From: an uncultured Bdellovibrionales bacterium
GTDB lineage: Bacteria > Patescibacteriota > Minisyncoccia > Moranbacterales > UBA1568
Length of the DNA: 56,579 bases
Assembly (NCBI GenBank): GCA_964488025.1
Contig: CAZATJ010000001.1
Location: 73,104-129,682, forward strand
Reading direction: 5' to 3'
Part shown: piece after piece, positions 1,172-27,838 of the stretch
How the letters are laid out: the number at the start of each line of letters is the position of its first letter
Position numbering within the stretch: the first letter of the stretch is position 1
Notes under the pieces: model-generated
The model's database searches: none
Seen by the model: the letters and a program-made list of their open reading frames with translations, nothing else
What the model was told of the DNA's origin: nothing
Program-made: the position numbers and the translations under genes

Positions 1172-2875
1172 TCAACTGATAGCGGTAAGTTTCCGAACAA
1201 CTTCCTCGACAGAGAACGGGTCACCATCATACTTCAAAATATTTTCCGAAATTTCCACATCATATTCCAACTTGAGAAGATTAGCAAACTGTCCGGTAGC
1301 GTTATTTTCCATCACAATAATCTTTTTCTTCGCAAAAAATTTCTTGGCCTTGACTGGAAGCGGATACACCTGATGGAAATGGAGCGCCGCTATATTTTCT
1401 CGCTTGGTAAGTGGCAGCGCTTCCTCAATTACGCCGCGATTTGACCCCCAAATCACCACGAGCACATCGGCTCCGGCGACATCACCGATCTCGGTCGGCA
1501 TGAGCGCCTCCTGGCGGATACCCGAGAACTTGGACAGGCGCTTCTCGTGCATAGCCAAACGCACCGTCGCACTTTCAGTAATATGGGCCGCCTCATCATG
1601 CTCATCGCTATCGACGCCGACCAAACCCTCGCCATAGCCCGGTACTCCGCGAGGCGATATGCCATTTTTCATCAAAGCATAGCGCTGATATTCAGGCTTG
1701 GTAATCACGATATGATTCTTCATTTTAACACGTTGCAGATTCTCCTCCGGAAAACTAGAGAGGGAATCCAAAAGATACTGATCTGTCAGAATAAACACCG
1801 GTATCTGATAGGTGTCGGCGATATGAAAGGCCTGCTGTGCTACCAAAAAACATTCTTCCGGAGTCCCCGGAGCGAAAATAGCGCGCGGAAACTCGCCGTG
1901 GCCAGCGTACAACACCAGGTTAAGATCAGCCTGTTCAGTGCGGGTCGGCAGTCCGGTAGCCGGTCCCGGACGCTGTCCGATGTGTACCACAATCGGCGTC
2001 TCAATCATACCGGAGAGACTCACCCCTTCGGTCATAAGGTCAAACCCTCCACCCGAAGTAGTCACGATTGCCCGCGCCCCAGCGTACCAGGCCCCCAGCC
2101 CCTGATTGATGGCAGCAATCTCATCTTCCGCCTGATCCACCGCTATCCCAAACCGTTCGCCCTGTTCCGCCAAAAAAGTCAACAATCCGGTTCCGGGCGA
2201 CATCGGGTAGGAAGAAACATAGTTACAACCGGCAGAGAGCGTTCCAAGTCCAAGCGCCGTAACACCATCCATAAGTAGCTCCTGTTTCACTTTTTCCTCA
2301 CGCTTCAATTCCACCTCGATACCGGCATCATACGCTACGTGTCTTCCGAAACCATATCCCTTTTCGGCCGCCTCGATATTTTTGGCTACCACTTCCTCCC
2401 CCTTGCGGGAAAAATGCTCCCGTAAATAGTCTTCGAAAATTTTCTTATCGGCGTTGAGAATGCCCAGTGCTACCCCGACCGCCACCGTGCTGGTATAGAG
2501 AGGATTGCCCAATTCATTGGCAAACTGCGTGAATGGGATATTGATGACCGGACACGTCGTCATGGTACACACTTTTTCCCGCTCGCCAAGTATGATAGTA
2601 TCCTTGCTGATACGGTGTTCTAGATGCGGCAGAACATCCTTATCCATGGCAAATAAGAGATCAATACGCTCCACAAAAGCCCTCCGTGGCGTGTTGGTCA
2701 CGCGGATTTCGGTCGAGTTGCTGCCACCACGGATGCGCGACATGTACTCCTTGATAGCGAAGACGTGGTAGCCTTCGCGCTTGAGTACCGAGACAAGAAG
2801 TGCCTCAACGGTCTGCACCCCCTGTCCGGCCGCCCCACCCAAAACGATTGAAACATCTCCGGAAAATCTTTTCAT
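1172..2875 (-). CDS. korA: 2-oxoacid:ferredoxin oxidoreductase alpha subunit (gamma-alpha fusion)
   Basis: GGAAGQGVQT, EYMSRIRGG, YPMSP, EDEIAA, TSGGG, RPGPATGLPT motifs; substrate specificity cannot be determined from sequence. Confidence 0.93.
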   Translation of the reverse strand: MKRFSGDVSIVLGGAAGQGVQTVEALLVSVLKREGYHVFAIKEYMSRIRGGSNSTEIRVTNTPRRAFVERIDLLFAMDKDVLPHLEHRISKDTIILGEREKVCTMTTCPVINIPFTQFANELGNPLYTSTVAVGVALGILNADKKIFEDYLREHFSRKGEEVVAKNIEAAEKGYGFGRHVAYDAGIEVELKREEKVKQELLMDGVTALGLGTLSAGCNYVSSYPMSPGTGLLTFLAEQGERFGIAVDQAEDEIAAINQGLGAWYAGARAIVTTSGGGFDLMTEGVSLSGMIETPIVVHIGQRPGPATGLPTRTEQADLNLVLYAGHGEFPRAIFAPGTPEECFLVAQQAFHIADTYQIPVFILTDQYLLDSLSSFPEENLQRVKMKNHIVITKPEYQRYALMKNGISPRGVPGYGEGLVGVDSDEHDEAAHITESATVRLAMHEKRLSKFSGIRQEALMPTEIGDVAGADVLVVIWGSNRGVIEEALPLTKRENIAALHFHQVYPLPVKAKKFFAKKKIIVMENNATGQFANLLKLEYDVEISENILKYDGDPFSVEEVVRKLTAIS

Positions 2876-2918
2876 GTCCGTTTTTCTTTTGACTCCATTA
2901 TAACACGTCCCCTCCCTC

Positions 2919-3671
2919 CTAAGAAAAGAATCCGGCCAGCTGGGTCACGATAACCAAAGCGGCCAGCGCTACCATGACACCGATGATGGAATATTGCACG
3001 ATTTTCTTACCAGTATTGATGCGTTCCTCGTCCCCGGCCGAAGTGAGATACATAAGTCCGCCGACAACCAGCATGATAATGCCGACCACCCCGACCACAG
3101 AAAGAAGGAAATTGAGCACACTGGTCGCGATTTCGGCCAGTGTCTTCGAGGTAGCAACCGCTCCAGCGGCAATCGGTCCCCAACCAAGAACCTCCCCAAT
3201 CTGCTTCAAGAAAGAAGGAGCGGCAATACCAAGCGCCAGACCAATCAAAGCTGCCGTAATGACGCTCTTGGCCGTTGTGAGTCGACCTTCATCTCCGGCC
3301 GCGGTCATATAGAGAATCCCACCGATGACGATGAAAATGAGAGAAAGAATGGCGATGATAGCCTGAAGCGATCCGAGCAGCGAATCAAGCACTCCTTCGA
3401 CCGTGGTGAATGCGACAGGATTATTGACTTGCACGGCAACTATCTGCGGTGCCGTTGGTGCCGTCTGTCTACAACAAGTGGTAAGACTGTCATTACAGAG
3501 GCCGATTGGTGTTTCATCTGGAAACCCAGAACACGTCGCTGACGGACGACAGGTCTCACCGGCACCAATACAAGCAACCGCCAGGGCTGGCGGTGCCGAA
3601 AAAAAAGCAATGGATGAAAACGAAAAAATGCTCAAAAAGAAGAACAGGGTCATTAGATATCGGTACGACAT
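2919..3671 (-). CDS. VirB2/TrbC-like pilin with two pilin domains and an N-terminal six-Cys head
   Basis: Signal peptide, Cys-rich segment, then two hydrophobic hairpins each containing Y(M/L)T(A/S)AGDE. Confidence 0.8.
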   Translation of the reverse strand: MSYRYLMTLFFFLSIFSFSSIAFFSAPPALAVACIGAGETCRPSATCSGFPDETPIGLCNDSLTTCCRQTAPTAPQIVAVQVNNPVAFTTVEGVLDSLLGSLQAIIAILSLIFIVIGGILYMTAAGDEGRLTTAKSVITAALIGLALGIAAPSFLKQIGEVLGWGPIAAGAVATSKTLAEIATSVLNFLLSVVGVVGIIMLVVGGLMYLTSAGDEERINTGKKIVQYSIIGVMVALAALVIVTQLAGFFS

Positions 3672-3696
3672 AGTTTTTCACAATTCCTCTAAAAAA

Positions 3697-4293
3697 TTAA
3701 GCGAAGAAATTAGCAATCTGGGTGACAATCACTAAGGCGGACAGCGCTACTATGATACCGATGATGGAATAGGTGACGATTTTTTTGCCCGCTTCGGCTT
3801 TGCTTTCATCACCGGCCGCCGTCAAATACGTCATGCCGCCCACTACGAGCATAATGACCGCGATGACTCCAACGATGGAAAGAAGGAAGTTGAGCACCTT
3901 GAGCGCTACCGAACTGAGTGTCGGAGCAGCCACCAAAGCCGCGTCCACCGCACCCCAACCAAGTACACCGGCAATTTCTTTCAAGAATGATGGGGCGGCA
4001 ATACCAAGCGCCAGACCGATCAAAGCTGCCGAGATGGCGCTCTTAGCCAGTGTCATGCGCGACTCATTCCCAGCCGAGGTGATATACAGCACCGCCCCGA
4101 TAATAATAAATATGATTGCCAAAACCACGATAATCCCCTGCATGGCACTGAGTGCCGAACTGAGCACTCCCTCTAAAGTGTTGAACTTGAGAGGGTTGGC
4201 ATAGCTCGCTGCGGAAACGCTCCCGACGAGAGAAAAAAAGACTACCGATGTTACGACACCACTGAACCAAATCCGAAACCTATCGTAAAGCAT
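3697..4293 (-). CDS. VirB2/TrbC-like pilin with two pilin domains
   Basis: YITSAGNE and YLTAAGDE hairpins; close paralogue of 2919-3671. Start moved to ATG 4293 to avoid overlap with the upstream gene. Confidence 0.8.
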   Translation of the reverse strand: MLYDRFRIWFSGVVTSVVFFSLVGSVSAASYANPLKFNTLEGVLSSALSAMQGIIVVLAIIFIIIGAVLYITSAGNESRMTLAKSAISAALIGLALGIAAPSFLKEIAGVLGWGAVDAALVAAPTLSSVALKVLNFLLSIVGVIAVIMLVVGGMTYLTAAGDESKAEAGKKIVTYSIIGIIVALSALVIVTQIANFFA

Positions 4294-4309
4294 AAGAAGT
4301 TTCTTGGAA

Positions 4310-4702
4310 TTAAAATGTCGATGAACCACCAAAGGCCGCGATAACAGCCGTCAGAATGACCAAACCGGAAAGGGCTACAATCACCCCGATAATCGAATAT
4401 TTCATGTTGCGCTTGGCGGTCGAAATCTGATCGTCGTCACCGGCCGACGTCAGATACTGGATGCCGGAAATAACAAAAGCAATAACTGCCAAAAAGCCAA
4501 GAATGCCAAAAAGCCAGTTCATCACCACCCCAAGAACGTAGGAGACCGATGAAGCTGAAAGACCACTCGTCGTCGGAAGACAGACGCCGCTTCCAGTCGT
4601 ATCGAAATAATCTGTCGGGCAGACCACCGCCTGCGCTGGCGAGGAAACAAGCATCAGCCCTCCGAACGCAAAGAAAAAAATGAAAACCAGTGTTCGAAAC
4701 AT
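4310..4702 (-). CDS. VirB2/TrbC-like pilin with a two-Cys N-terminal loop
   Basis: Signal peptide ending AQA, CPTDYFDTTGSGVC loop, YLTSAGDDD hairpin. Confidence 0.8.
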   Translation of the reverse strand: MFRTLVFIFFFAFGGLMLVSSPAQAVVCPTDYFDTTGSGVCLPTTSGLSASSVSYVLGVVMNWLFGILGFLAVIAFVISGIQYLTSAGDDDQISTAKRNMKYSIIGVIVALSGLVILTAVIAAFGGSSTF

Positions 4703-4766
4703 AGTATTTTTTATTTTGTTTGAACTTTAAAAAGAAAGACCTACCTTTATGGTACTCGTTTTGACC

Positions 4767-4806
4767 AAAAAAAACAATCCCGTTCGGACGACTCCAAACA
4801 GGATTG
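4767..4806 (-). terminator. Intrinsic terminator after the putative major pilin
   Basis: Minus strand CAATCCTGTTTGGA-GTCG-TCCGAACGGGATTG (14 bp including G-U pairs) followed by a T-run. Confidence 0.8.
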
Positions 4807-4824
4807 CCTTTTGGTAATGTGCCA

Positions 4825-5193
4825 CTAGAACGTTGTGCTTCCGCCAGTAAAAAATGCCTGGGCAGCACTGAAAATCACGAGACCGAGCATAGCGACAATA
4901 ACGCCGACGATCGAATAGACCATGGCATTCTTGGCCTTGCTGATCTGATCCTCATCACCAGCTGCGGTGAGATAGAGGATCCCGGAGATAACGAAACCGA
5001 TGATCGCCAAGAAACCGATGATGCCGAACAACCAATACATCAGCTGCTGAACGAGAAGGGTGATGCTGGTACCCGTCAGTCCGGATTTTGCAGCGTTAGC
5101 CTGCCCTACGCTTACCTGAGCGCCTGCGACTGCCGGAGCCAAGGCAACCGCTGCCGAGACCGCTCCGTACAAAGCGTTTTTAATTTTATTCAT
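4825..5193 (-). CDS. VirB2/TrbC-like pilin, probable major subunit
   Basis: Ala-rich signal peptide, YLTAAGDED hairpin, perfect Shine-Dalgarno upstream and own terminator downstream. Confidence 0.82.
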   Translation of the reverse strand: MNKIKNALYGAVSAAVALAPAVAGAQVSVGQANAAKSGLTGTSITLLVQQLMYWLFGIIGFLAIIGFVISGILYLTAAGDEDQISKAKNAMVYSIVGVIVAMLGLVIFSAAQAFFTGGSTTF

Positions 5194-5199
5194 AAATTC

Positions 5200-5240
5200 T
5201 CACCTCCTTTCAGTGTCTTTATCCGAATCATTCGGATAAA
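5200..5240 (-). promoter_or_regulatory. Perfect SD (AAAGGAGGTGA) preceded by a 23-bp palindrome
   Basis: tcacctccttt at 5200-5210; TTTATCCGAAT-C-ATTCGGATAAA at 5218-5240. Confidence 0.7.
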
Positions 5241-5261
5241 AGTTTTCTTTTTGCTTTTTGT

Positions 5262-5564
5262 TTAGGCGAACCAACTTCCTATCTGCGATAAAAATATCAA
5301 TGCCGAGAACGCGATCACCGTACCGATAACACAGGCGAGTGCCGCCTGCTTAGCCAACCTGATACGCCTCTCATCACCTTCGGCCGTCAGATACCAGGTG
5401 CCCGCTATAACTACCCCAATTATACCAACAACTCCCGCAATTGACAATAAAAAATTAAGTATATTAACGAGCGCTTCCGACAAAGGCGTGGCGTCGGTAA
5501 TTGATCCGGCCGCCCGAGCCTTCCAAATGAAGGAGAGGTATTCCATATGCTTGAGAGAAAACAA
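5262..5564 (-). CDS. VirB2/TrbC-like pilin (short; start uncertain)
   Basis: LNFLLSIAGVVGII...WYLTAEGDE hairpin shared with neighbours. Confidence 0.72.
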   Translation of the reverse strand: MFSLKHMEYLSFIWKARAAGSITDATPLSEALVNILNFLLSIAGVVGIIGVVIAGTWYLTAEGDERRIRLAKQAALACVIGTVIAFSALIFLSQIGSWFA

Positions 5565-6020
5565 TCAACGGTTGGCATTAGAACTGACATCGCAGGAAAA
5601 CTCAAAAGTCCCGCCCTTAATCAGTCCGCCGAGTGGTTTGCTCATATCGCTCGTATCCACCAGAATGGTCAGGATAACATTAACGATGAGCCAGGCTGAG
5701 AGCATTACTCCAAATCCGATAAGAGCGGCCATAATCCCCCCCTTGGCCGTCTGCATCATCCCAGGATTCCCCGCGGACGTCACGTAGAGTACTGCCATAG
5801 CGAACAGCACGGTGATGGCGATAACCGTCATGATACCCAATCCCCAGGTAATGAAACTATTTCCCCCGACGATGATGTGACACACCGTGCAAGGAGCCGT
5901 TTCCGCCGAGGTGCCGGAACTCTTGCCGCAGGGAACGAGACCAGCGGCTTCTGTCCGGTCAGGTACTACGATTAAAGACACCGAAAAAAAGAAAAGGAGA
6001 ATTATCAGAAAACGCTTCAT
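5565..6020 (-). CDS. VirB2/TrbC-like pilin with GLVPCG...PCTVCH head
   Basis: Signal peptide, four Cys, YVTSAGNP hairpin. Confidence 0.78.
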   Translation of the reverse strand: MKRFLIILLFFFSVSLIVVPDRTEAAGLVPCGKSSGTSAETAPCTVCHIIVGGNSFITWGLGIMTVIAITVLFAMAVLYVTSAGNPGMMQTAKGGIMAALIGFGVMLSAWLIVNVILTILVDTSDMSKPLGGLIKGGTFEFSCDVSSNANR

Positions 6021-15995: not shown

Positions 15996-18875
15996 TTATT
16001 TTCGCTTACCAGAAGAAGAAAAAATGGCTTGTTCAGGAAGCAGTGTCAGAACAAATCGAGCGGTGAAAAGAACCAAAATAGCGCTGAGGAGAACCCTGAA
16101 CGAGAACATAAGTGATGTCGGAATATAGGAAGAAATGGCAGCCAGATATTTTTTGGTTCCCTGAAGCGTCCCCTGGGCGAAACCGGACTCCTTGAGCTCC
16201 ACCTGAATAGAGGCTGAAAAGTGAATTTCCGTCGACTCAAGCGGCGAAATATTCCAAATATCACGCAATGCCCGTCGAACATCTTGTGATTGGGTGATTG
16301 AGGTCGCCAAAGCAATATTATAAACATCCGGCGGCGATTTGAGCGCAGAAAAGGTAATTCCCATAGGAAAAGCCTCATTTATGAGGATATTATCCACCGT
16401 CCATTGACGAGGAGGAGCCCCCAGAGCGAGAAAGTTTGGCAGGTAAGCCGCCCTAAATGAGAAATCTTCACCGGAAAAACCCTCAAAGACCGAGTCGCTG
16501 TATGCGCTGCAAAAACCGCCGCTACATGCCAAAGAAGCCGCTCCATCAACATCCTTGTACTGCCCGACGAGTTTCGGCCAAGCCGTGCCTAAATCGGCGG
16601 ATTCGATGGAAAGCACCGGAGCGATAACATGGAACGTGCGAGCAAGTGCCACTGTTTTTCCGGTGACTGTATCATTGGCGGTCAGAGTCACCGTGTACGT
16701 CTCTCCTGCTTCCCCAGTTACCGGAAAAAAGTTGACGAAATTCTGCTGCCCAATCGTGATATTTCCAAAAGCATCTTCTTCACAATCTTGGGAAACAACT
16801 AAGCGATTACAAAGAAGTTCCGCTCCATTGATAGTCCACTGAAAATTTGTCAAATTAGTCGGGTCAACTCTCAGTCCGATGACTTCATTTTTGATAATGC
16901 GACAAGCCACCCTATCAAGCGGATCATCATTGCAAATAATATCCGGGCTTAGGGCAACCTGCATCGTCGATCCTATCAAAACAGGATTCACTTTATAAGC
17001 GGAAATTTTCTGTCCGGTAGAAGTGAATTTTACCACCACATCGCTTTTCCCCTTGCGAACAGCCCCACTCGAAAAGTTCTCCGATGCCTTTACCGTAAAA
17101 CGCAGATACCCGATACCACCAATCAGATAGCTCCCTAATGTGTTCCCAGCCAGAAGCGTGGTTGCATTGTTTAAAATATCGAGCTTGAGTCGTACTGAGT
17201 CAAGCGCCGCGCCCTTAACATTACCGAGCAGCTTCAGCGCCTGAAGATCACTCGTCACATTTGCGGAAATAAGAGACCCGCTATTTCTGAATTGGGCGTT
17301 ATTACTCAGTTCCACGTCCCACTCAAACAGTATTTCACTTAAGCTACGACCAGGGTTTCCCACGCTGGCCTGAGCAACGACGAAGTCGCCGCCACCCTCC
17401 GGCAGTCCGGTCGTCGCATCAACCGACTCATCATTAATCGGGGTATCAGGAGTCGCTGAAACACCGATATCCAAGATAGTGGCCTGACCACCTTGCGTCG
17501 GATCAACCAGGTTTCTTTCCAGACATCTGTTGAGATCAAAATCGGCCGAGAGCATTGTCACCGTATACCCCTTAATCGACTCTACAAATGACCCGAGTCC
17601 GGTCGCAAGGGTTATTGGACAATCCTTTTTGGAAAAAGCCCACATAATCATCGCTGAAGAATCGTCATATTTCGTTGCAAACATTGATGTTCCTTCAATC
17701 GCCACCCCTATCTGATCGCCGGCGGAATAATTCCAAGTGATACTACTCTGACTCAACCCAACAGTATTAGCCTCATCCTTATTTCCGTTATCAGCCGTAT
17801 CCGAATCGGCAGGATTCGTTCCCCAGAACTCTTCTTCATTTGCGCCAAATATCCCATCCCCATTGGTAAATCCTGGTACTATCGGAAAAAGATGCTGACA
17901 AGCGCGAGTGATCCCGCCTCCGCTGCTGCATGATGTGAGAGGAGAACCGCTCGAACAAAGGAAGGATTCTGTCTCTGCTATATTCGATGGTACACAATAG
18001 GGGACTCCGACACCACAAGCAGCTCCCCCGCTACTACATACAGGCAGCCCAGCCGCATGACAGACGGTCCCATCGACAAACTCAAATGCCGGACCGGAAG
18101 TGCCAGGGGTCGGTGGAACAGGAACAGTAGGATCTGAACCGCCATCTCCCGGAATGACTATATCTATCGGATTCACCTCGGTATCGCCCTGCAAACACAC
18201 GGCTATAGTGCCACTGGGACAATCGAAACTGACATTGCCTGATTCTCCGAGCTCATATTTTTTTCCAGATTTCGGATCATCAACGTAACAGTGATCATTG
18301 GTACCAACCCGATTATCCCCGCCATACCGAGCCTTGTAGCCATCGTTATCAGTATCCGATCCATAGCTGGCCTCAGCTTTGTCAAAACCATTCTGAGCGA
18401 TAATCTTCGCGGCATCTACCTTCCAATCGTTTACAGTGATTCTCCCATCGCCATCACTATCACACAAAGCAAGATTCCCTCCACCGATATTACATTCGAC
18501 ACGCTTAAGATACCAGGTGTAATACAAATCCGTCTCGTTGGTGGAAAAGTACATTGGAAAAGCTTTGGCAGTGATTTTTTCTCCCGGCTTGGGGTCGCTT
18601 GGATTGAAAAAGAGGGAAACCTCGGGTGCTGGTTTTTTATTATCGGCGGTGTTGAAACTTTCCCCCTGACTCTGGATACTTCCAGTATCAAGATGGTATC
18701 TTTTTTCCATATCGGAAAACACCGAAGAAGGAGAAGGTATCTTGGGACCACTGAAAAGTCCGGCAGAGGCCGGAAGGGTGCTCATGACAAAAAAATGCAA
18801 AAGGACAAGGACATTCAGGAGCACTTTTTGTTTTTTTCGAAAAAATCCAATCATATATTTACGAAGAGATGTCAA
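15996..18875 (-). CDS. Large Cys-rich surface protein with Ca-binding DxDxDG-type motifs and C-terminal membrane anchor
   Basis: Signal/TM helix, DSDGDGRITVND, DTDNDG, Cys cluster, GTNPADSDT, C-terminal TM helix followed by GKRK. Confidence 0.85.
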   Translation of the reverse strand: MTSLRKYMIGFFRKKQKVLLNVLVLLHFFVMSTLPASAGLFSGPKIPSPSSVFSDMEKRYHLDTGSIQSQGESFNTADNKKPAPEVSLFFNPSDPKPGEKITAKAFPMYFSTNETDLYYTWYLKRVECNIGGGNLALCDSDGDGRITVNDWKVDAAKIIAQNGFDKAEASYGSDTDNDGYKARYGGDNRVGTNDHCYVDDPKSGKKYELGESGNVSFDCPSGTIAVCLQGDTEVNPIDIVIPGDGGSDPTVPVPPTPGTSGPAFEFVDGTVCHAAGLPVCSSGGAACGVGVPYCVPSNIAETESFLCSSGSPLTSCSSGGGITRACQHLFPIVPGFTNGDGIFGANEEEFWGTNPADSDTADNGNKDEANTVGLSQSSITWNYSAGDQIGVAIEGTSMFATKYDDSSAMIMWAFSKKDCPITLATGLGSFVESIKGYTVTMLSADFDLNRCLERNLVDPTQGGQATILDIGVSATPDTPINDESVDATTGLPEGGGDFVVAQASVGNPGRSLSEILFEWDVELSNNAQFRNSGSLISANVTSDLQALKLLGNVKGAALDSVRLKLDILNNATTLLAGNTLGSYLIGGIGYLRFTVKASENFSSGAVRKGKSDVVVKFTSTGQKISAYKVNPVLIGSTMQVALSPDIICNDDPLDRVACRIIKNEVIGLRVDPTNLTNFQWTINGAELLCNRLVVSQDCEEDAFGNITIGQQNFVNFFPVTGEAGETYTVTLTANDTVTGKTVALARTFHVIAPVLSIESADLGTAWPKLVGQYKDVDGAASLACSGGFCSAYSDSVFEGFSGEDFSFRAAYLPNFLALGAPPRQWTVDNILINEAFPMGITFSALKSPPDVYNIALATSITQSQDVRRALRDIWNISPLESTEIHFSASIQVELKESGFAQGTLQGTKKYLAAISSYIPTSLMFSFRVLLSAILVLFTARFVLTLLPEQAIFSSSGKRK

Positions 18876-20043: not shown

Positions 20044-22041
20044 CTAATTCCCCGCGTCAAAATCCCGTTTGGCTTCCTCGATTTCCAAAAGCTGCCGTGG
20101 GTCGGAAGTAATAATCTGATCCTCGCTGTAAGACGCGATTACTTTGATGGCAGCATGTTTGGTACCGGCAAAAAAGATGCCTTCTCCAACATTGCTCTCC
20201 AAAAGGAGAAACTTCTCGTGATCGGTCAGGAAAAAGGTTTCGGCAATCAGATCAATCGAGGACGGCGATTGCCGCAACAGAAGCTGGAGTGACGAGTTGG
20301 TAATAATCGGCTTGCCGTAACGCGACGACATGAAGTCGCTGATATCCTGCGTGATAGTCGTCAGCCCCGTGTAGTATTTGCGACAACGCTTGGCGATACC
20401 GAAGAGGAATCCGGCAGCGTCTTCATGCTGCATCATCACCCAGGCCTCGTCCACCACAATCACCCGTTTCTTCATGTGCGTCCGAATCTCATTCCACACG
20501 AACTGGAGAATGATATACATGGCAATCGGTCGCAACTCCTCCTCGAGATCGCGGATATTAAATGCCACCAGCTGATTATTCATTTCGATGTTGGTCTGCT
20601 TATCGAGAAATCCTCCGAAAATCCCTTCCGTATAACGCTCAAGACGGATGGAAAGCGATTCGGCTCCATCCATATTCTGAAGCACCGCGTAGAGGTCGGA
20701 CATGGTCGGAAATGACGAAGCATCCAACTGGGAATAATCACTGACCTGGGTAATGTCACGAATAGCATACGTTTCCCGGATGGCCCGGTCGAGAATGGAG
20801 TCCTCTTCCGGAGTCACCGAACCAAGCATAAGGTGGAGAAGTCCAATCAGGTTGGCAACCGCGCTCCGAAATACCCCCTGAACATCCTCATCATCCACCC
20901 TCCTTGGCAGATCGAATGGGTTGAGGTGGGCATCGGAATTGAGAGAAATATTGAGAAAAGTGCCTCCCACCGCATCACAGAGATGTTTGTATTCATTTTC
21001 CGGATCGATAATAATGACACTCGCACCGAACATCATGGAGCGGAGCACCTCGAGCTTCACGGTATAACTTTTTCCGGCACCGGATTTGGCGAAAACGACC
21101 ATGTTGGCATTTTCCATCTTGAAACGATCGAATAGTATCAGTCCGTTATTATGGCGATTGATTCCGAAAAGCACCCCTTGATTGGATGAAAGGTCGGAAG
21201 AGACAAAGGGAAAGGTAGTCGAAAGAGGCTCGGTATTCAGGTTATTAGCCACATCAAGGACATCGTTCGCGAGTGGCCGAGTCGCGGCGAAACCCTGATC
21301 CATTCGGAGTACCGCGGCCTTGGTATACACTAACTGAGCTTCAAGAATCGATTGAATAGCACTACACTTGTCCGTCAGGTCGCCTTCGTCCTTACCGAAA
21401 ATGGTCATATATATGCCGAAACGGAAAAATTTTTCCGTCCCCTGCAAGAGGCTGTTCCGTAAATTTTCTATATCTTCAAGTGCCGTTTCAAGCATTGGAT
21501 CGCGAATCTTCCCGTCCTCTGCCTCGATATGAATCTGTGACTGGACCTGGGTTGCCGATTTGCGAAGATTCTTCATAATCTCTCCGGTATCAATCGGATG
21601 AATGAAGAGCGCCGCATCCATGCTAAAGTCGATATTGATAATCGGCGAAAACCAGTTTGTCGAAAGAAACCGCGGATAAGCGACAACAAAATAGGTGCGC
21701 GAAAGGACATTGCCGATCTGCATGGTATTAGGACCAAGTTTGACGGCCGGAGGAGCGATCAGGTCTTTCAGCGTGGCGATGCCCTGGTGATAGAGAGCGT
21801 CTGTCTCTTTGGAGGCTTCAACATTCTTTCCTGATAAAGAAAGACTACTCACCGAGGTGATAGATGCCGGTGCCACATACGGCATCGGATTGATTGGTTC
21901 GGGAGTTTTCTCCGAGATAGCCACTGCCTCCTCGGGCAGCGACTGCGATACCGCCGATTTTTTGGACGGTACGAACGACGGTGACACCAGGTCCCACAAG
22001 TCGGCTTTCGCGCTTTTTTTGAGAGTGATTCTCTTATCCAT
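20044..22041 (-). CDS. virB4: VirB4-like type IV secretion ATPase
   Basis: Walker A AKSGAGKS, IIDPENEY, Walker B VVDEAW, RKY..GLTTITQD. Confidence 0.92.
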   Translation of the reverse strand: MDKRITLKKSAKADLWDLVSPSFVPSKKSAVSQSLPEEAVAISEKTPEPINPMPYVAPASITSVSSLSLSGKNVEASKETDALYHQGIATLKDLIAPPAVKLGPNTMQIGNVLSRTYFVVAYPRFLSTNWFSPIINIDFSMDAALFIHPIDTGEIMKNLRKSATQVQSQIHIEAEDGKIRDPMLETALEDIENLRNSLLQGTEKFFRFGIYMTIFGKDEGDLTDKCSAIQSILEAQLVYTKAAVLRMDQGFAATRPLANDVLDVANNLNTEPLSTTFPFVSSDLSSNQGVLFGINRHNNGLILFDRFKMENANMVVFAKSGAGKSYTVKLEVLRSMMFGASVIIIDPENEYKHLCDAVGGTFLNISLNSDAHLNPFDLPRRVDDEDVQGVFRSAVANLIGLLHLMLGSVTPEEDSILDRAIRETYAIRDITQVSDYSQLDASSFPTMSDLYAVLQNMDGAESLSIRLERYTEGIFGGFLDKQTNIEMNNQLVAFNIRDLEEELRPIAMYIILQFVWNEIRTHMKKRVIVVDEAWVMMQHEDAAGFLFGIAKRCRKYYTGLTTITQDISDFMSSRYGKPIITNSSLQLLLRQSPSSIDLIAETFFLTDHEKFLLLESNVGEGIFFAGTKHAAIKVIASYSEDQIITSDPRQLLEIEEAKRDFDAGN

Positions 22042-24352: not shown

Positions 24353-26410
24353 CTATCTCCCGTGTTCCTTTTTCACTCGTTGCATTTTCTCCCTCAGTCT
24401 TGCGCCTTCATCCGTTTGTTTCCCCTGAACTTCTGGAGAAATACCATTTTCAGTCCATTTATCCCTATCAACTTTTGACATCTTTTTAAATGCTTCCTGA
24501 TAAAACTTCGGCTCATCATCTACTTTTTCTTTCAAATAATTCTTCAGGTCGTTATCTGTTGCAATAGCCGAATGAATACTCCCTTGTTTCGCCAAATCAT
24601 CAGCACCCAATCTCCCAATAAGATCCTCATACACTTCAGTACGTGTCTCACCTTCTTTTTGAGGATTAAGCGGACCCGCCGCTCTCTTTTCATTCATCTT
24701 TCTCGCAATTTCATAATCAACTCGCACCTTAAGATTTCCCTCTCTCTTCAATCTACTGTTATAGGCGTCGTGTGAATCCCTCATCTTTTGATCAATAATT
24801 CCGTTGCCATCCTTATCTATCTTAACTTTTCCAGTAGCATCCTTTTCATAAAATGCATTCCTGATATTTCCGTCCTGCGCTGTGTTTATACCACCAATAG
24901 CCTCTGATCGCGCGCTATCCAAGATTTTTGCTACCGCATCATTATTGTCGCCAACTGCCGAAATAGCCTTGGCCAAAGTATCAGCGCTACGAATACCCTT
25001 GCTTTCAGCCAAAGACAGAGCAGCTGCCTCCCTTTCAACTCTATCATTTGATTGGAGATTATTAACATGAGTCGAATCGCTAACCTGATTTTCTTTATTT
25101 TTCTTAACCTGTTCATTAACTTGTTTCTGATGTGCTTTTTCTCGTTCAGTAGCAACTCCACCTCGCCACCCTTTCTCAGAGCCAGCCCCCTTTGTCGCTC
25201 CCTTAGCAAAAGTCTCGATGCCGCTTGGACGCGCCAAGTATCTTCCAACCCTAGATTCAGAGAATCGAGCCTTCGCTCCCTGACCGACACCTGATGCAAA
25301 CTTCCGAGCAGGATAAGTTATGCCGCCACTTGTCTTCTTCCCGGCCCATTTGGCGAATTTTTGTCCTAAACCAGTGACTGTTCCCGCGCCGGCGATAGAC
25401 ATAGAGGTCCCTATCCCGATAGCAAACCACATCATGATGACCGGAACCGTAAACATAGCCATGGAACTGACGATGTTCGTCCCGTCCTTGATTGAATTAC
25501 CCAGGGCTATTTCAAAAAATTGACTCTTTGTGTCGTCTCTACCTATTTCTGCAAAAAAACGAGTGGCAATAAGAAGCATAAGCATGGCTGCTGGCCCGAA
25601 GAGCGCATACTTGGCGAGGTTGTCCCACCACTTACTGCTAAACTGTTGCATCCCCGGGATCACCGAGGCGGCGAACCCGACCGAGGAAAAAATGAGGAGA
25701 ATGACTAGAGCGACCAATCGCACCACCATAAGCACGGCCATCACCAGCATGGAGATCATGAAAAGAAAGAGCATCACAATGGCCATAATCAGGTGTGCCA
25801 TACTCGTACTCCACAGTGATTTTGAATCAGGAATAAGAGCTTCTTGTATTCGTGAGGCTCCAAGAAAATTGCCGAAAACAGTTTCTCCCCCCTCTACAGT
25901 TGCCATCTGATTGACGAAGTAGTACATGGGAACATTGGTCACATCGATGATAACGCGCGTAATGGGAAAACTGAAATTGATAAAGAGGGCGGCCAGCACG
26001 ATGCTGAGCAAGGTCTTTTTGTAATTGGCGGCCACTTGAAAGACAATAGTAAAGGCCGTATAGAGAAGGGTCAGGATGAAGAACAGGTTAAAAAAGTCCC
26101 GAATAAATTTCCAGCTCGTATAAACGCTTTCCTTGTTGAGAATACCGCTCGGCCCAGAAATATAATCGGGGTTGATAGCCCACTCAAAAAGGGTGACCGC
26201 CATAGAAGTCATCCAGCCGAGCAGAACAAAAATCGAATACAAGATCATTTTGAAAGGGTACAGCGCCCCATCAGCAGCGGTATCCAATACCCATCCAAAA
26301 GTTGCGCCAATCCCCGCATGGGCCGCCTGAGGGAAAGCAAATCCCGCTACCAGTAAGAGCAATAGAACAAAGGTGAGTTGAAATTTCTTTTTGTTTTTTT
26401 CAGACAACAT
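24353..26410 (-). CDS. VirB6/TrbL-like multi-pass membrane protein with long charged C-terminal tail
   Basis: W..IRDFFNLFFI..LL..AF, LFINFSFPITRVIID, RLVAL.ILLIFS, WW..L....FGP; hydrophilic C-terminal third. Confidence 0.8.
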   Translation of the reverse strand: MLSEKNKKKFQLTFVLLLLLVAGFAFPQAAHAGIGATFGWVLDTAADGALYPFKMILYSIFVLLGWMTSMAVTLFEWAINPDYISGPSGILNKESVYTSWKFIRDFFNLFFILTLLYTAFTIVFQVAANYKKTLLSIVLAALFINFSFPITRVIIDVTNVPMYYFVNQMATVEGGETVFGNFLGASRIQEALIPDSKSLWSTSMAHLIMAIVMLFLFMISMLVMAVLMVVRLVALVILLIFSSVGFAASVIPGMQQFSSKWWDNLAKYALFGPAAMLMLLIATRFFAEIGRDDTKSQFFEIALGNSIKDGTNIVSSMAMFTVPVIMMWFAIGIGTSMSIAGAGTVTGLGQKFAKWAGKKTSGGITYPARKFASGVGQGAKARFSESRVGRYLARPSGIETFAKGATKGAGSEKGWRGGVATEREKAHQKQVNEQVKKNKENQVSDSTHVNNLQSNDRVEREAAALSLAESKGIRSADTLAKAISAVGDNNDAVAKILDSARSEAIGGINTAQDGNIRNAFYEKDATGKVKIDKDGNGIIDQKMRDSHDAYNSRLKREGNLKVRVDYEIARKMNEKRAAGPLNPQKEGETRTEVYEDLIGRLGADDLAKQGSIHSAIATDNDLKNYLKEKVDDEPKFYQEAFKKMSKVDRDKWTENGISPEVQGKQTDEGARLREKMQRVKKEHGR

Positions 26411-26584: not shown

Positions 26585-27838
26585 CTAATAGATGAATCCC
26601 TTGATCACCCGGCTCGTAGCCGAGAGCGTGCGCCGACTCGTCTTGCCCCAGCCAACGTAGTTCATTTCGGACACGGTAATCATGCCGCCGCTCACCTTTT
26701 CTACCAGTGCCACATGACCGTAGAAACGGTTTTCGGTTGTCACCACCATGGCTCCGACCGCCGGAGTCCGGCCGGTCTTGTAGCCCATCGCTCTGGCGTT
26801 ATACAGCCAGGCTCCGGCGTTACCCCTCCACGGCACATAGCGTTTCTGAGCCACATACCAAGTGCAGTAGCCATACGGAAAGCGGTGTCCCGCCCCTGCT
26901 TTTCCTTCGAGTTTGCGGAAGTTGGGGGAAATATCGGTCGCCGTACCGCCAGTCGAGGTGGCGTACTGTCGCCGTTCAATTCCGGTATCGGGAACGGTCG
27001 GGCGGGAAACTTCTTCTTTCCGGCCGTCGGGAATGATTATAAGGTCTCCCGCTTCTACTTCCCCATTGGCAGGCAATTCATTGAAAGCGATGATTTTTTC
27101 CTTTTCGGCCTTGTACTTACTGGCGATGGAGTCAATCGTATCCCCCGACTGCACCGCGTAAGAAATTCCAGCTACTGGCAGGATGAATATATTATCCCCC
27201 GGCCTGATCTGATCGACATTGTCGAGATCATTGGCCCACAGAATCGTGTTGACCGTAATGCCGTTCTTGGCCGCGATACCGCTCACAGTGTCCCCCGACT
27301 CGATGGTGTAGATCTTAACACCGCCATCTTCCTCGGGATCACGCGCAATGGCCGATCCCGTCTGCGTGGAAAGCATGGCCTGATTATCAAATGTCCCCGC
27401 CTCTATTTCAAAAAGCGAAGTATCGGTTTTCTGTTCAGGATCGATGGGGCTGGTCACGTTAGCAAGTGGCACCAGCGAGAGATTCTCCTTTTTGCTTACC
27501 TGGGCGGCGATACGGTGCTTTGGAGCAAGAGCTTCCTCAACCGAATTTTGGCCATTAATATAGCCGAATAACATGCTTTCAGAATCTTTTCCTCCAGTGA
27601 AGTTGCTCGCCGATACCAAAAGAGCACTCGAAGTCACAATAGAAAAAGCCGAATAGCTCCGAAAAAGACGCACCGCCCGATATCCCGAGACCTCCTTGAT
27701 GAACCGGAGGGTCTTGGTTTGTAGGTGGTGGATACGCGTATGCAGATCGCGGAAAAGCTTGGTACGAATAAAACGACTGCCTTTCAATCGGTCAAAGTCC
27801 TGAGAACGGCTTAACCGAAACCAATCGGTCAAAAACAT
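26585..27838 (-). CDS. LysM-LysM-CHAP peptidoglycan hydrolase
   Basis: Two LysM repeats (YTIESGDTVSGIA, YAVQSGDTIDSIA); CHAP FPYGYCTWYV...GNA..W...GHVALVE. Confidence 0.9.
   Translation of the reverse strand: MFLTDWFRLSRSQDFDRLKGSRFIRTKLFRDLHTRIHHLQTKTLRFIKEVSGYRAVRLFRSYSAFSIVTSSALLVSASNFTGGKDSESMLFGYINGQNSVEEALAPKHRIAAQVSKKENLSLVPLANVTSPIDPEQKTDTSLFEIEAGTFDNQAMLSTQTGSAIARDPEEDGGVKIYTIESGDTVSGIAAKNGITVNTILWANDLDNVDQIRPGDNIFILPVAGISYAVQSGDTIDSIASKYKAEKEKIIAFNELPANGEVEAGDLIIIPDGRKEEVSRPTVPDTGIERRQYATSTGGTATDISPNFRKLEGKAGAGHRFPYGYCTWYVAQKRYVPWRGNAGAWLYNARAMGYKTGRTPAVGAMVVTTENRFYGHVALVEKVSGGMITVSEMNYVGWGKTSRRTLSATSRVIKGFIY

Follow-up and report, generated by a model that had tools for sequence, protein, structure and literature searches.

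The window analyzed here is a stretch of 56,579 nucleotides from contig CAZATJ010000001.1 (positions 73,104 to 129,682 of the forward strand; NCBI GenBank assembly GCA_964488025.1), deposited as an uncultured Bdellovibrionales bacterium and placed by GTDB within the Patescibacteriota (Moranbacterales). Our subject is the terminal gene of a pilin array in this window, an open reading frame (ORF) on the minus strand at 2919..3671 whose 250-amino acid product joins two VirB2-like helical hairpins in a single chain and carries a small six-cysteine domain, the head, in front of them. The protein belongs to the type IV secretion system (T4SS) pilin family PF18895 (T4SS_pilin), which it matches in two stretches at 67.8 bits (cut-off 26.6); the NCBIfam model NF045849 (pilin-like conjugal transfer protein) reaches 35 bits, below its cut-off of 40.

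Architecture of the head-bearing double pilin

The product begins with MSYRYLMTLFFFLSIFSFSSIAFFSAPPALA followed by VACIGAGETCRPSATCSGFPDETPIGLCNDSLTTCCRQ. Residues 1-31 (3579..3671, minus strand, as for every part of the gene) are hydrophobic and end in A-L-A, a motif of the cleavage type, and the AXA rule would place the cleavage site of this putative signal peptide there. Directly behind it, residues 34-67 (3471..3572) hold six cysteines in the arrangement C-x6-C-x5-C-x11-C-x6-CC (C34 to C67 correspond exactly to 3572..3471), a spacing that the first-pass annotation had reported at this position and that the translation bears out. A GxC element (IGLC) precedes the fourth cysteine. All six cysteines of the protein sit in the head and none elsewhere; by simple arithmetic, the chance that six randomly placed cysteines fall within one 34-residue span of 250 residues is about 6e-6.

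The head is followed by a Pro/Ala/Val-rich linker (residues 68-90, RQTAPTAPQIVAVQVNNPVAF...; 3402..3470) that contains an N-P motif invariant in the family. In the model of the mature full-length protein built with AlphaFold2 (AF2; mean predicted local distance difference test score, pLDDT, 85.8), mature residues 39-59 lack secondary structure, and N53/P54 is invariant in alignment A2, from which this model was made. The first helical hairpin (residues 91-161, turn YMTAAGDEGR; 3189..3401) coincides with the first PF18895 stretch; an exposed inter-hairpin linker (residues 162-177; 3141..3188), predicted as coil at pLDDT 61-76, leads to the second (residues 178-249, turn YLTSAGDEER; 2925..3140), which holds the best PF18895 stretch (175-243). 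In the model, four long helices pair up as two hairpins (60-92/97-130 and 147-179/184-218; pLDDT 84-97), and the order of a signal peptide followed by hydrophobic helix-turn-helix hairpins is that of PF18895. Foldseek comparison of the full-length model with the PDB gave generic helical bundles only (talin, ferritin and BAR domains, with a root-mean-square deviation, rmsd, above 10 Å) and is uninformative for the pilin part.

Likeness of the head to beta-defensins

The 120 best homologs were surveyed for the pattern C-x(2-9)-C-x(2-7)-C-x(5-16)-C-x(2-9)-CC before a double pilin, and 68 of them carry one to four such modules, 93 in total. All six cysteine columns are invariant in the alignment of these modules (A1), and 338 of the 339 matches made by the module profile across all proteins collected retain the full set; the first-pass annotation had made its reading depend on cysteine conservation of this kind. 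Other conserved positions in the 93 modules are a G two residues before the second cysteine (55%), R or K after it (57%), G-E after the third (46% and 57%), a G two residues before the fourth, forming the GxC element (67%), and a G ahead of the terminal CC (62%). On a leave-one-out profile of the family the head reaches 28.5 bits, compared with 6.3 +/- 5.1 bits for shuffled versions with fixed cysteines, none of 1000 of which reach 28.5, and the head therefore belongs to the family by more than its cysteine spacing. Within the 918-kb genome it is the sole match to the module profile, and its 6-5-11-6 spacing is unique among the 93 modules.

Modules of this family also occur in other protein contexts. 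A 512-residue protein from an Altiarchaeota metagenome-assembled genome (MAG; P0123) strings together seven of them with Pro-rich linkers and is not a pilin, and P0126 (1063 amino acids, from a Logan contig) is a large surface protein that carries 11 modules and, at its C-terminus, a hydrophobic and basic tail like that of a sorting signal. Because these non-pilin proteins carry it, the module appears to be in general use among ultrasmall prokaryotes as an extracellular building block. Two single-hairpin pilins of another subfamily of the candidate phyla radiation (CPR), recognizable by a TAIGCIP... motif (P0130, P0135), have two modules each, which indicates that such heads are not confined to fused double pilins.

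The spacing of the head (6, 5, 11, 6) fits the beta-defensin framework C-x(4-8)-C-x(3-5)-C-x(9-13)-C-x(4-7)-CC, and several of its homologs are recognized outright by defensin families: P0002, P0007, P0009 and P0011 pass PF13841 (Defensin_beta_2) at 24.5-26.5 bits against a cut-off of 22.2, and three of these (P0002, P0007, P0011) also pass PF00711 (Defensin_beta) at 22.0-22.8 bits against a cut-off of 21, with P0009 just under it at 20.8. Among the 93 modules, PF13841 matches 37 (best E 2.3e-7), PF00711 27, the mammalian alpha-defensin family 11 and DEFB136 6, and each non-defensin Pfam family matches at most three. The A1 profile finds 53 sequences in the PDB at E <= 10, every one a defensin or a peptide of beta-defensin fold (beta-, big- and alpha-defensins together with APETx2, helianthamide and the tick carboxypeptidase inhibitor), led by 6mjv (2.8e-6) and mouse BD8 (2.8e-5) and then by avian BD3, hBD2 and hBD3; alpha-defensins are reached at E 0.009-1. 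Four of these beta-defensins score 21-29 bits on the module profile, whereas versions with only their non-cysteine residues shuffled average 4-5 bits and reach the real score in 0-1 of 500 trials, so that the likeness to beta-defensins extends beyond spacing. The first-pass annotation had cautioned that spacing alone does not prove homology; the likeness seen here goes further than spacing, and it may reflect either homology or convergence.

The best match to the module profile in a library of 1.84e9 proteins is a 2051-residue protein of the crab Petrolisthes cinctipes (P0121; E 8e-32, 16 repeats), named 'Beta/alpha-defensin C-terminal domain-containing protein' in UniRef, and the next are a krill protein and the seven-module Altiarchaeota protein. 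Nearly all of the crab protein is made up of beta-defensin-like repeats in tandem, 16 or more in number and alternating among three types, a polyprotein architecture unusual for defensins.

Structure prediction agrees with the sequence comparisons. AF2 modeled the module alone from A1 with three strands at 10-13, 24-29 and 36-40 (pLDDT 77), and matching strands appear at pLDDT 84-90 in the full-length model, which was made from a different alignment. When the module model was compared with the PDB by Foldseek, the best seven matches were human beta-defensin 1 (five mutant entries), hBD2 and bovine BNBD-12, with template modeling (TM) scores of 0.54-0.67 normalized to the target, rmsd of 2.0-2.2 Å over 31-36 columns and 26-32% identity; a comparison with the viral library BFVD yielded nothing meaningful. 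The head is thus predicted to adopt the three-stranded antiparallel beta-sheet of beta-defensins rather than the different fold that the first-pass annotation had named as a counter-indication.

Judged by a strict membership test, the head behaves like a beta-defensin domain and is predicted to resemble one. With vertebrate beta-defensins and the C-terminal domains of invertebrate big-defensins (trans-defensins; PF00711, PF13841, PF14862; PDB entries 1e4q, 1e4r, 2nlq, 1bnb and 6qbk) it shares the six-cysteine framework ending in CC, with spacing within their range, the G, GxC and E positions, a predicted sheet that superposes at ~2 Å and reciprocal profile matches. Unlike them, it is bacterial, is acidic where they are strongly cationic, and stands at the N-terminus of a polytopic protein of the membrane or pilus. 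Two defining features of beta-defensins are lacking, namely a score above the hidden Markov model threshold for this copy and the state of a cationic free peptide, the head being covalently continuous with the four-helix membrane part and not released.

True homology with the beta-defensin or big-defensin domain of animals, which would make the modules a prokaryotic branch of the trans-defensins through ancient ancestry or through a horizontal transfer linking animals and ultrasmall prokaryotes, is in our judgment possible, if rather doubtful. It would account for a profile likeness that is significant and specific (only defensin-type matches in the PDB, and beta-defensin families dominant in Pfam), to which the non-cysteine positions (G before and R/K after the second cysteine, E after the third, GxC at the fourth, G before CC) contribute ~20 bits; for the predicted fold; for the crustacean defensin polyprotein as top library match; and for the presence of the module in an Altiarchaeota MAG too. 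However, the shared non-cysteine residues are mostly glycines and turn residues, and because these are demanded by the fold itself, convergence on a 35-residue three-disulfide scaffold is plausible. Moreover, the two superfamilies of defensins are themselves regarded as without common descent (PMC11561630), and the charge, the membrane-protein fusion and the taxonomy of the modules are all unlike those of animal defensins. The same 2024 survey reports only cis-defensins from bacteria, with trans-defensins in vertebrates and some invertebrates, and our literature search for beta-defensins in connection with CPR, Patescibacteria, DPANN or T4SS pilins found no relevant paper. The bacterial cis-defensins (AdDLP, actifensin/actinomycesin, xanthusin; PMC11561630) resemble the head in being small, disulfide-rich, bacterially encoded modules of defensin type, but they belong to the other superfamily and are free secreted peptides, and the head has neither a predicted helix nor a CXXXC/CXC motif.

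More tentatively still, the 'animal-only' trans-defensin superfamily might possess a large, older branch among episymbionts of ultrasmall size (CPR bacteria and Altiarchaeota/DPANN archaea), deployed on T4SS pilins as an exchangeable host-recognition cassette. Were this true, a major arm of animal innate immunity would be a co-opted microbial surface-recognition fold. A prokaryotic family with the framework, the profile and the predicted fold of beta-defensins bears on the origin of that fold, and a 40-residue domain that can be synthesized and solved offers a simple experimental handle.

Head exchange in relatives and a proposed role

The fused double pilin is present in all 33 good-quality relatives, which span 16 genera, and its head content varies from none to several modules combined with other domains, in head regions of ~500 residues, even within a genus; the number of modules ranges from 0 to 3 or more within one genus. 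In L004, L008 and L014 (genomes G021, G002 and G016 of the same genus), heads of 400-560 residues unite defensin-like modules with other cysteine-containing repeats, recurrent '...Y.LEC.N..G.S...' units that are immunoglobulin- or PKD-like in appearance.

Across 36 head-bearing homologs, identity at non-cysteine positions is 19% in the head as against 66% in the body. Within one head type it is 88-96%, on par with the body, so that the divergence of heads is not simple drift. Indeed, unrelated head types (14-24% non-cysteine identity) occur on bodies of 88-100% identity in no fewer than five independent groups. In one such pair, P0004 and P0006, the pilin bodies are 100% identical from the conserved NP motif onward, and the two contigs, which come from different samples, present one syntenic locus (single pilin, headless double pilin, head pilin, Band_7, NusA, pyrophosphatase). 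The DNA of their arrays is 93-100% identical, falls abruptly to ~43% over the first ~68 codons of the head pilin, which encode signal peptide and head, and then returns to 97%; this sharply divergent patch inside near-identical DNA indicates that head and signal peptide were exchanged together as a recombination cassette. What is new here is the occurrence of unrelated head types on near-identical pilin bodies at one locus with sharp DNA boundaries.

Apart from the head cassette, two other sharply delimited divergent patches were seen in the comparison of the syntenic contigs L045 and L046. One, at 122-535 of L045, takes in ~90 codons at the N-terminal end of the first single pilin together with the upstream spacer, and a second, at 2092-3954, covers two downstream genes on the opposite strand (a protein of 244/206 amino acids and a Band_7 protein); the DNA around the patches is 93-100% identical, giving the neighborhood a mosaic appearance.

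We hypothesize that the head is a surface-displayed, exchangeable recognition head of beta-defensin type on a fused VirB2-like pilin of the Moranbacteria T4SS, a joint reading that we consider probable, if well short of certain. The gene product would be a covalently fused VirB2-like hairpin pair of this system, exported by the Sec pathway and cut behind the signal peptide to leave the 34-residue module at the mature N-terminus. Its three disulfides would most likely be made by membrane-anchored DsbA-like oxidoreductases, and the module would fold as the predicted three-stranded sheet, tied by a flexible ~20-residue linker to the outward side of the four helices in the membrane or pilus. The N-terminus should lie outside if the signal peptide is cleaved. 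In pilins of VirB2/TraA topology, the two ends of each hairpin lie on the outside and the turn (here YMTAAGDEGR and YLTSAGDEER) points into the cytoplasm or pilus lumen, and by analogy the head would decorate the outer surface of the cell or pilus as a compact scaffold that resists proteases and displays variable loops. Four features, namely a rigid scaffold held by disulfides whose loops vary, head types that are discrete and conserved, their exchange as cassettes and the fact that some species dispense with the head, together point to a specificity determinant on the surface. Its most likely purpose would be to recognize the host-cell envelope specifically, or to adhere to it, in the course of episymbiosis; this is the most economical reading because the lineage is thought to be cell-attached and T4SS pilins are essential in its only genetically tractable relative (PMC10633639). 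Escape from pilus-targeting phages may be an alternative or additional driver of head variation. For the question of how Patescibacteria recognize and attach to hosts, a compact, swappable T4SS pilin head is a concrete candidate specificity determinant, of which the present head is a clean single-module example alongside the cassette exchange of its relatives.

Variable domains exchanged by recombination are also found on other surface filaments, namely in the variable regions of type IV pilins and at the tips of phage tail fibers, which share with the heads the arrangement of discrete types on a conserved shaft-forming part and the sharp recombination boundaries. The head pilin differs from these in that its filament would be of VirB2 type and in the fold of its variable part.

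Several observations weigh against the proposal of a surface-displayed recognition head. We know of no pilus seen in Moranbacteria. The cassette exchange was observed in relatives and not in this genome; none of the RNA runs searched hold this stretch; a search of 5.8e9 proteins for close relatives of this head type recovered only the protein itself; and among the 339 module matches there are no natural variants with four cysteines, lacking one pair. The head itself scores 12.5-12.6 bits (E 0.15-0.16) on PF00711, short of the cut-off. Finally, a fused pilin with four helices might never leave the membrane.

This last point leads to a different placement, in which the protein is not a pilus subunit and instead anchors the head in the cytoplasmic membrane as a surface domain, perhaps as an assembly platform or pilin cap; we find this conceivable but doubtful. 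A two-hairpin fusion is not known from characterized VirB2/TraA pili, the structural search with the full model returned only generic bundles, and the five other paralogs of the array could build a shaft. Nevertheless, each half qualifies in its own right as a PF18895 domain and has the conserved turn motif, and the presence of the fused form in every one of the 33 relatives suggests a fixed structural role alongside the other pilins.

An error in the predicted fold is unlikely in our estimation. In that event the head would have a knottin-like topology, an alpha-defensin-like one with 1-6/2-4/3-5 connectivity, or none, being a disulfide-stapled linker without a defined fold. The wiring of beta-defensins (C1-C5, C2-C4, C3-C6) is a presumption for the head, the Foldseek E-values are weak (>= 0.27), as befits so tiny a domain, the profile also reaches alpha-defensins, and AF2 may be drawn to the beta-defensin fold by the cysteine pattern, since beta-defensin structures were in its training. 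Against such an error, the two independent AF2 runs agree on three strands at pLDDT 77-90, and the top seven structural matches are all beta-defensins, superposing at ~2 Å over 35 columns with an identity that covers the six cysteines.

Least probable of these alternatives, and to our minds quite unlikely, is a weapon that attaches to lipid II or to lipids in the host membrane and weakens the envelope at that site for a breach by the T4SS. Compatible with it are the defensin-like fold class, a CHAP/LysM hydrolase in the window that points to envelope attack, and the position of the head on the filament of a secretion system in a lineage of obligate-epibiont type, with essential T4SS pilins (PMC10633639). 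However, the modules are acidic or neutral (net charge -3 here, mean -0.9 and maximum +1 among the 93), in contrast to +5 to +7 in the beta-defensins matched; orthologs in the same genus do without any head, which is hence not needed for basic function; and a set of discrete types that are swapped suits recognition better than it suits a generic target such as a lipid. For the same reason of charge, a classical cationic membrane-killing function is unlikely. The first-pass annotation, which had proposed a small disulfide-knotted module of beta-defensin-like spacing on a pilin, is upheld in that central idea by the conserved cysteines, the predicted fold and the similarity beyond spacing, and weakened by the acidic charge of the modules in its option that the head perturbs a host envelope.

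Two further candidates were rejected. A zinc ribbon or other metal site does not suit a segment that is extracytoplasmic behind a signal peptide, lacks His and CxxC pairs and finds its best matches in disulfide peptides, and a cis-defensin (CS-alpha-beta) does not suit the lack of a helix in either model of the head or the scarcity of Pfam matches to that class among the 93 modules (Gamma-thionin 3, scorpion CS-alpha-beta 2; E 0.04-0.08).

Pilin array, secretion system and genome

Six PF18895 genes lie co-oriented and tightly spaced at 2919-6020, the head pilin being the last. Immediately upstream of it is a second double pilin (3697..4332, minus strand; PF18895 82.4 bits in two stretches) that has no cysteine head and shares 62% identity with the head pilin's body, and beyond it are four single-hairpin paralogs, all on the minus strand and above the PF18895 cut-off (4310-4702, 4825-5193, 5262-5564 and 5565-6020), whose heads contain 2, 0, 0 and 3+1 cysteines, respectively. 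The first of these has a two-cysteine loop (VVCPTDYFDTTGSGVCLPT) after its signal peptide, and the last has LVPCG...C-x2-C in that position and a lone cysteine near its C-terminus, differing head solutions inside one operon.

A monoderm-type T4SS cluster lies 16 kb from the head pilin on the shared strand. It includes a VirB4-type ATPase (20044..22041, minus strand; PF19044 TraG P-loop, 1.1e-27, and AAA_10) and, at its head, a cell-wall hydrolase with LysM and CHAP domains (26585..27838, minus strand; PF01476 and PF05257). Two further minus-strand ORFs of the cluster, at 15996-18875 (959 amino acids) and 24353-26410 (685 amino acids), have no Pfam match at E <= 1e-5.

VirB2-like pilin arrays of 2-11 genes have been described in Patescibacteria (Quinonero-Coronel et al. 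2025; PMC12102498), and a series of pilins in Southlakia epibionticum is reported to be essential (PMC10633639). The present locus resembles these in its two PF18895 domains well above cut-off, its signal peptide and turn-bearing helical hairpins, its tandem array of diverged paralogs and a monoderm-type T4SS in view without a relaxase; it departs from them in placing two hairpins in one chain and, in this gene, a presumed three-disulfide head at the mature N-terminus. In neither paper is there any word of heads that are cysteine-rich or defensin-like ('defensin' and 'disulfide' occur 0 times each in PMC12102498), and neither images a pilus of this type.

The genome, that of an ultrasmall bacterium of groundwater type within the Moranbacteria (CPR), comprises 918 kb in 53 contigs. 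It encodes three membrane-anchored DsbA-like proteins of thioredoxin fold, all above the PF13462 cut-off, with the CPxC sites FECPQC, FQCPAC and FECPFC (genome G000; L042-L044, at C2:93137-93628, C7:36028-36528 and C6:35579-36034), and a profile search of the genome found no VKOR (PF07884). With three such proteins encoded, oxidative folding of the head is possible and extracellular disulfide formation plausible.

This DNA is identical in contigs from four metagenome runs of one study, which argues against an assembly artefact; strain-level variation of the head was sought in the same four runs and none was seen. The named relatives of the head pilin are MAGs of Candidatus Moraniibacteriota/Moranbacteria. 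Two records titled uncultured Bdellovibrionales bacterium (CAYYET010000020.1 and CAZTBI010000005.1; L031 and L032) likewise contain a head pilin or double pilin of Moranbacteria type at 54-65% identity, and these MAGs are probably mislabelled or mixed bins.

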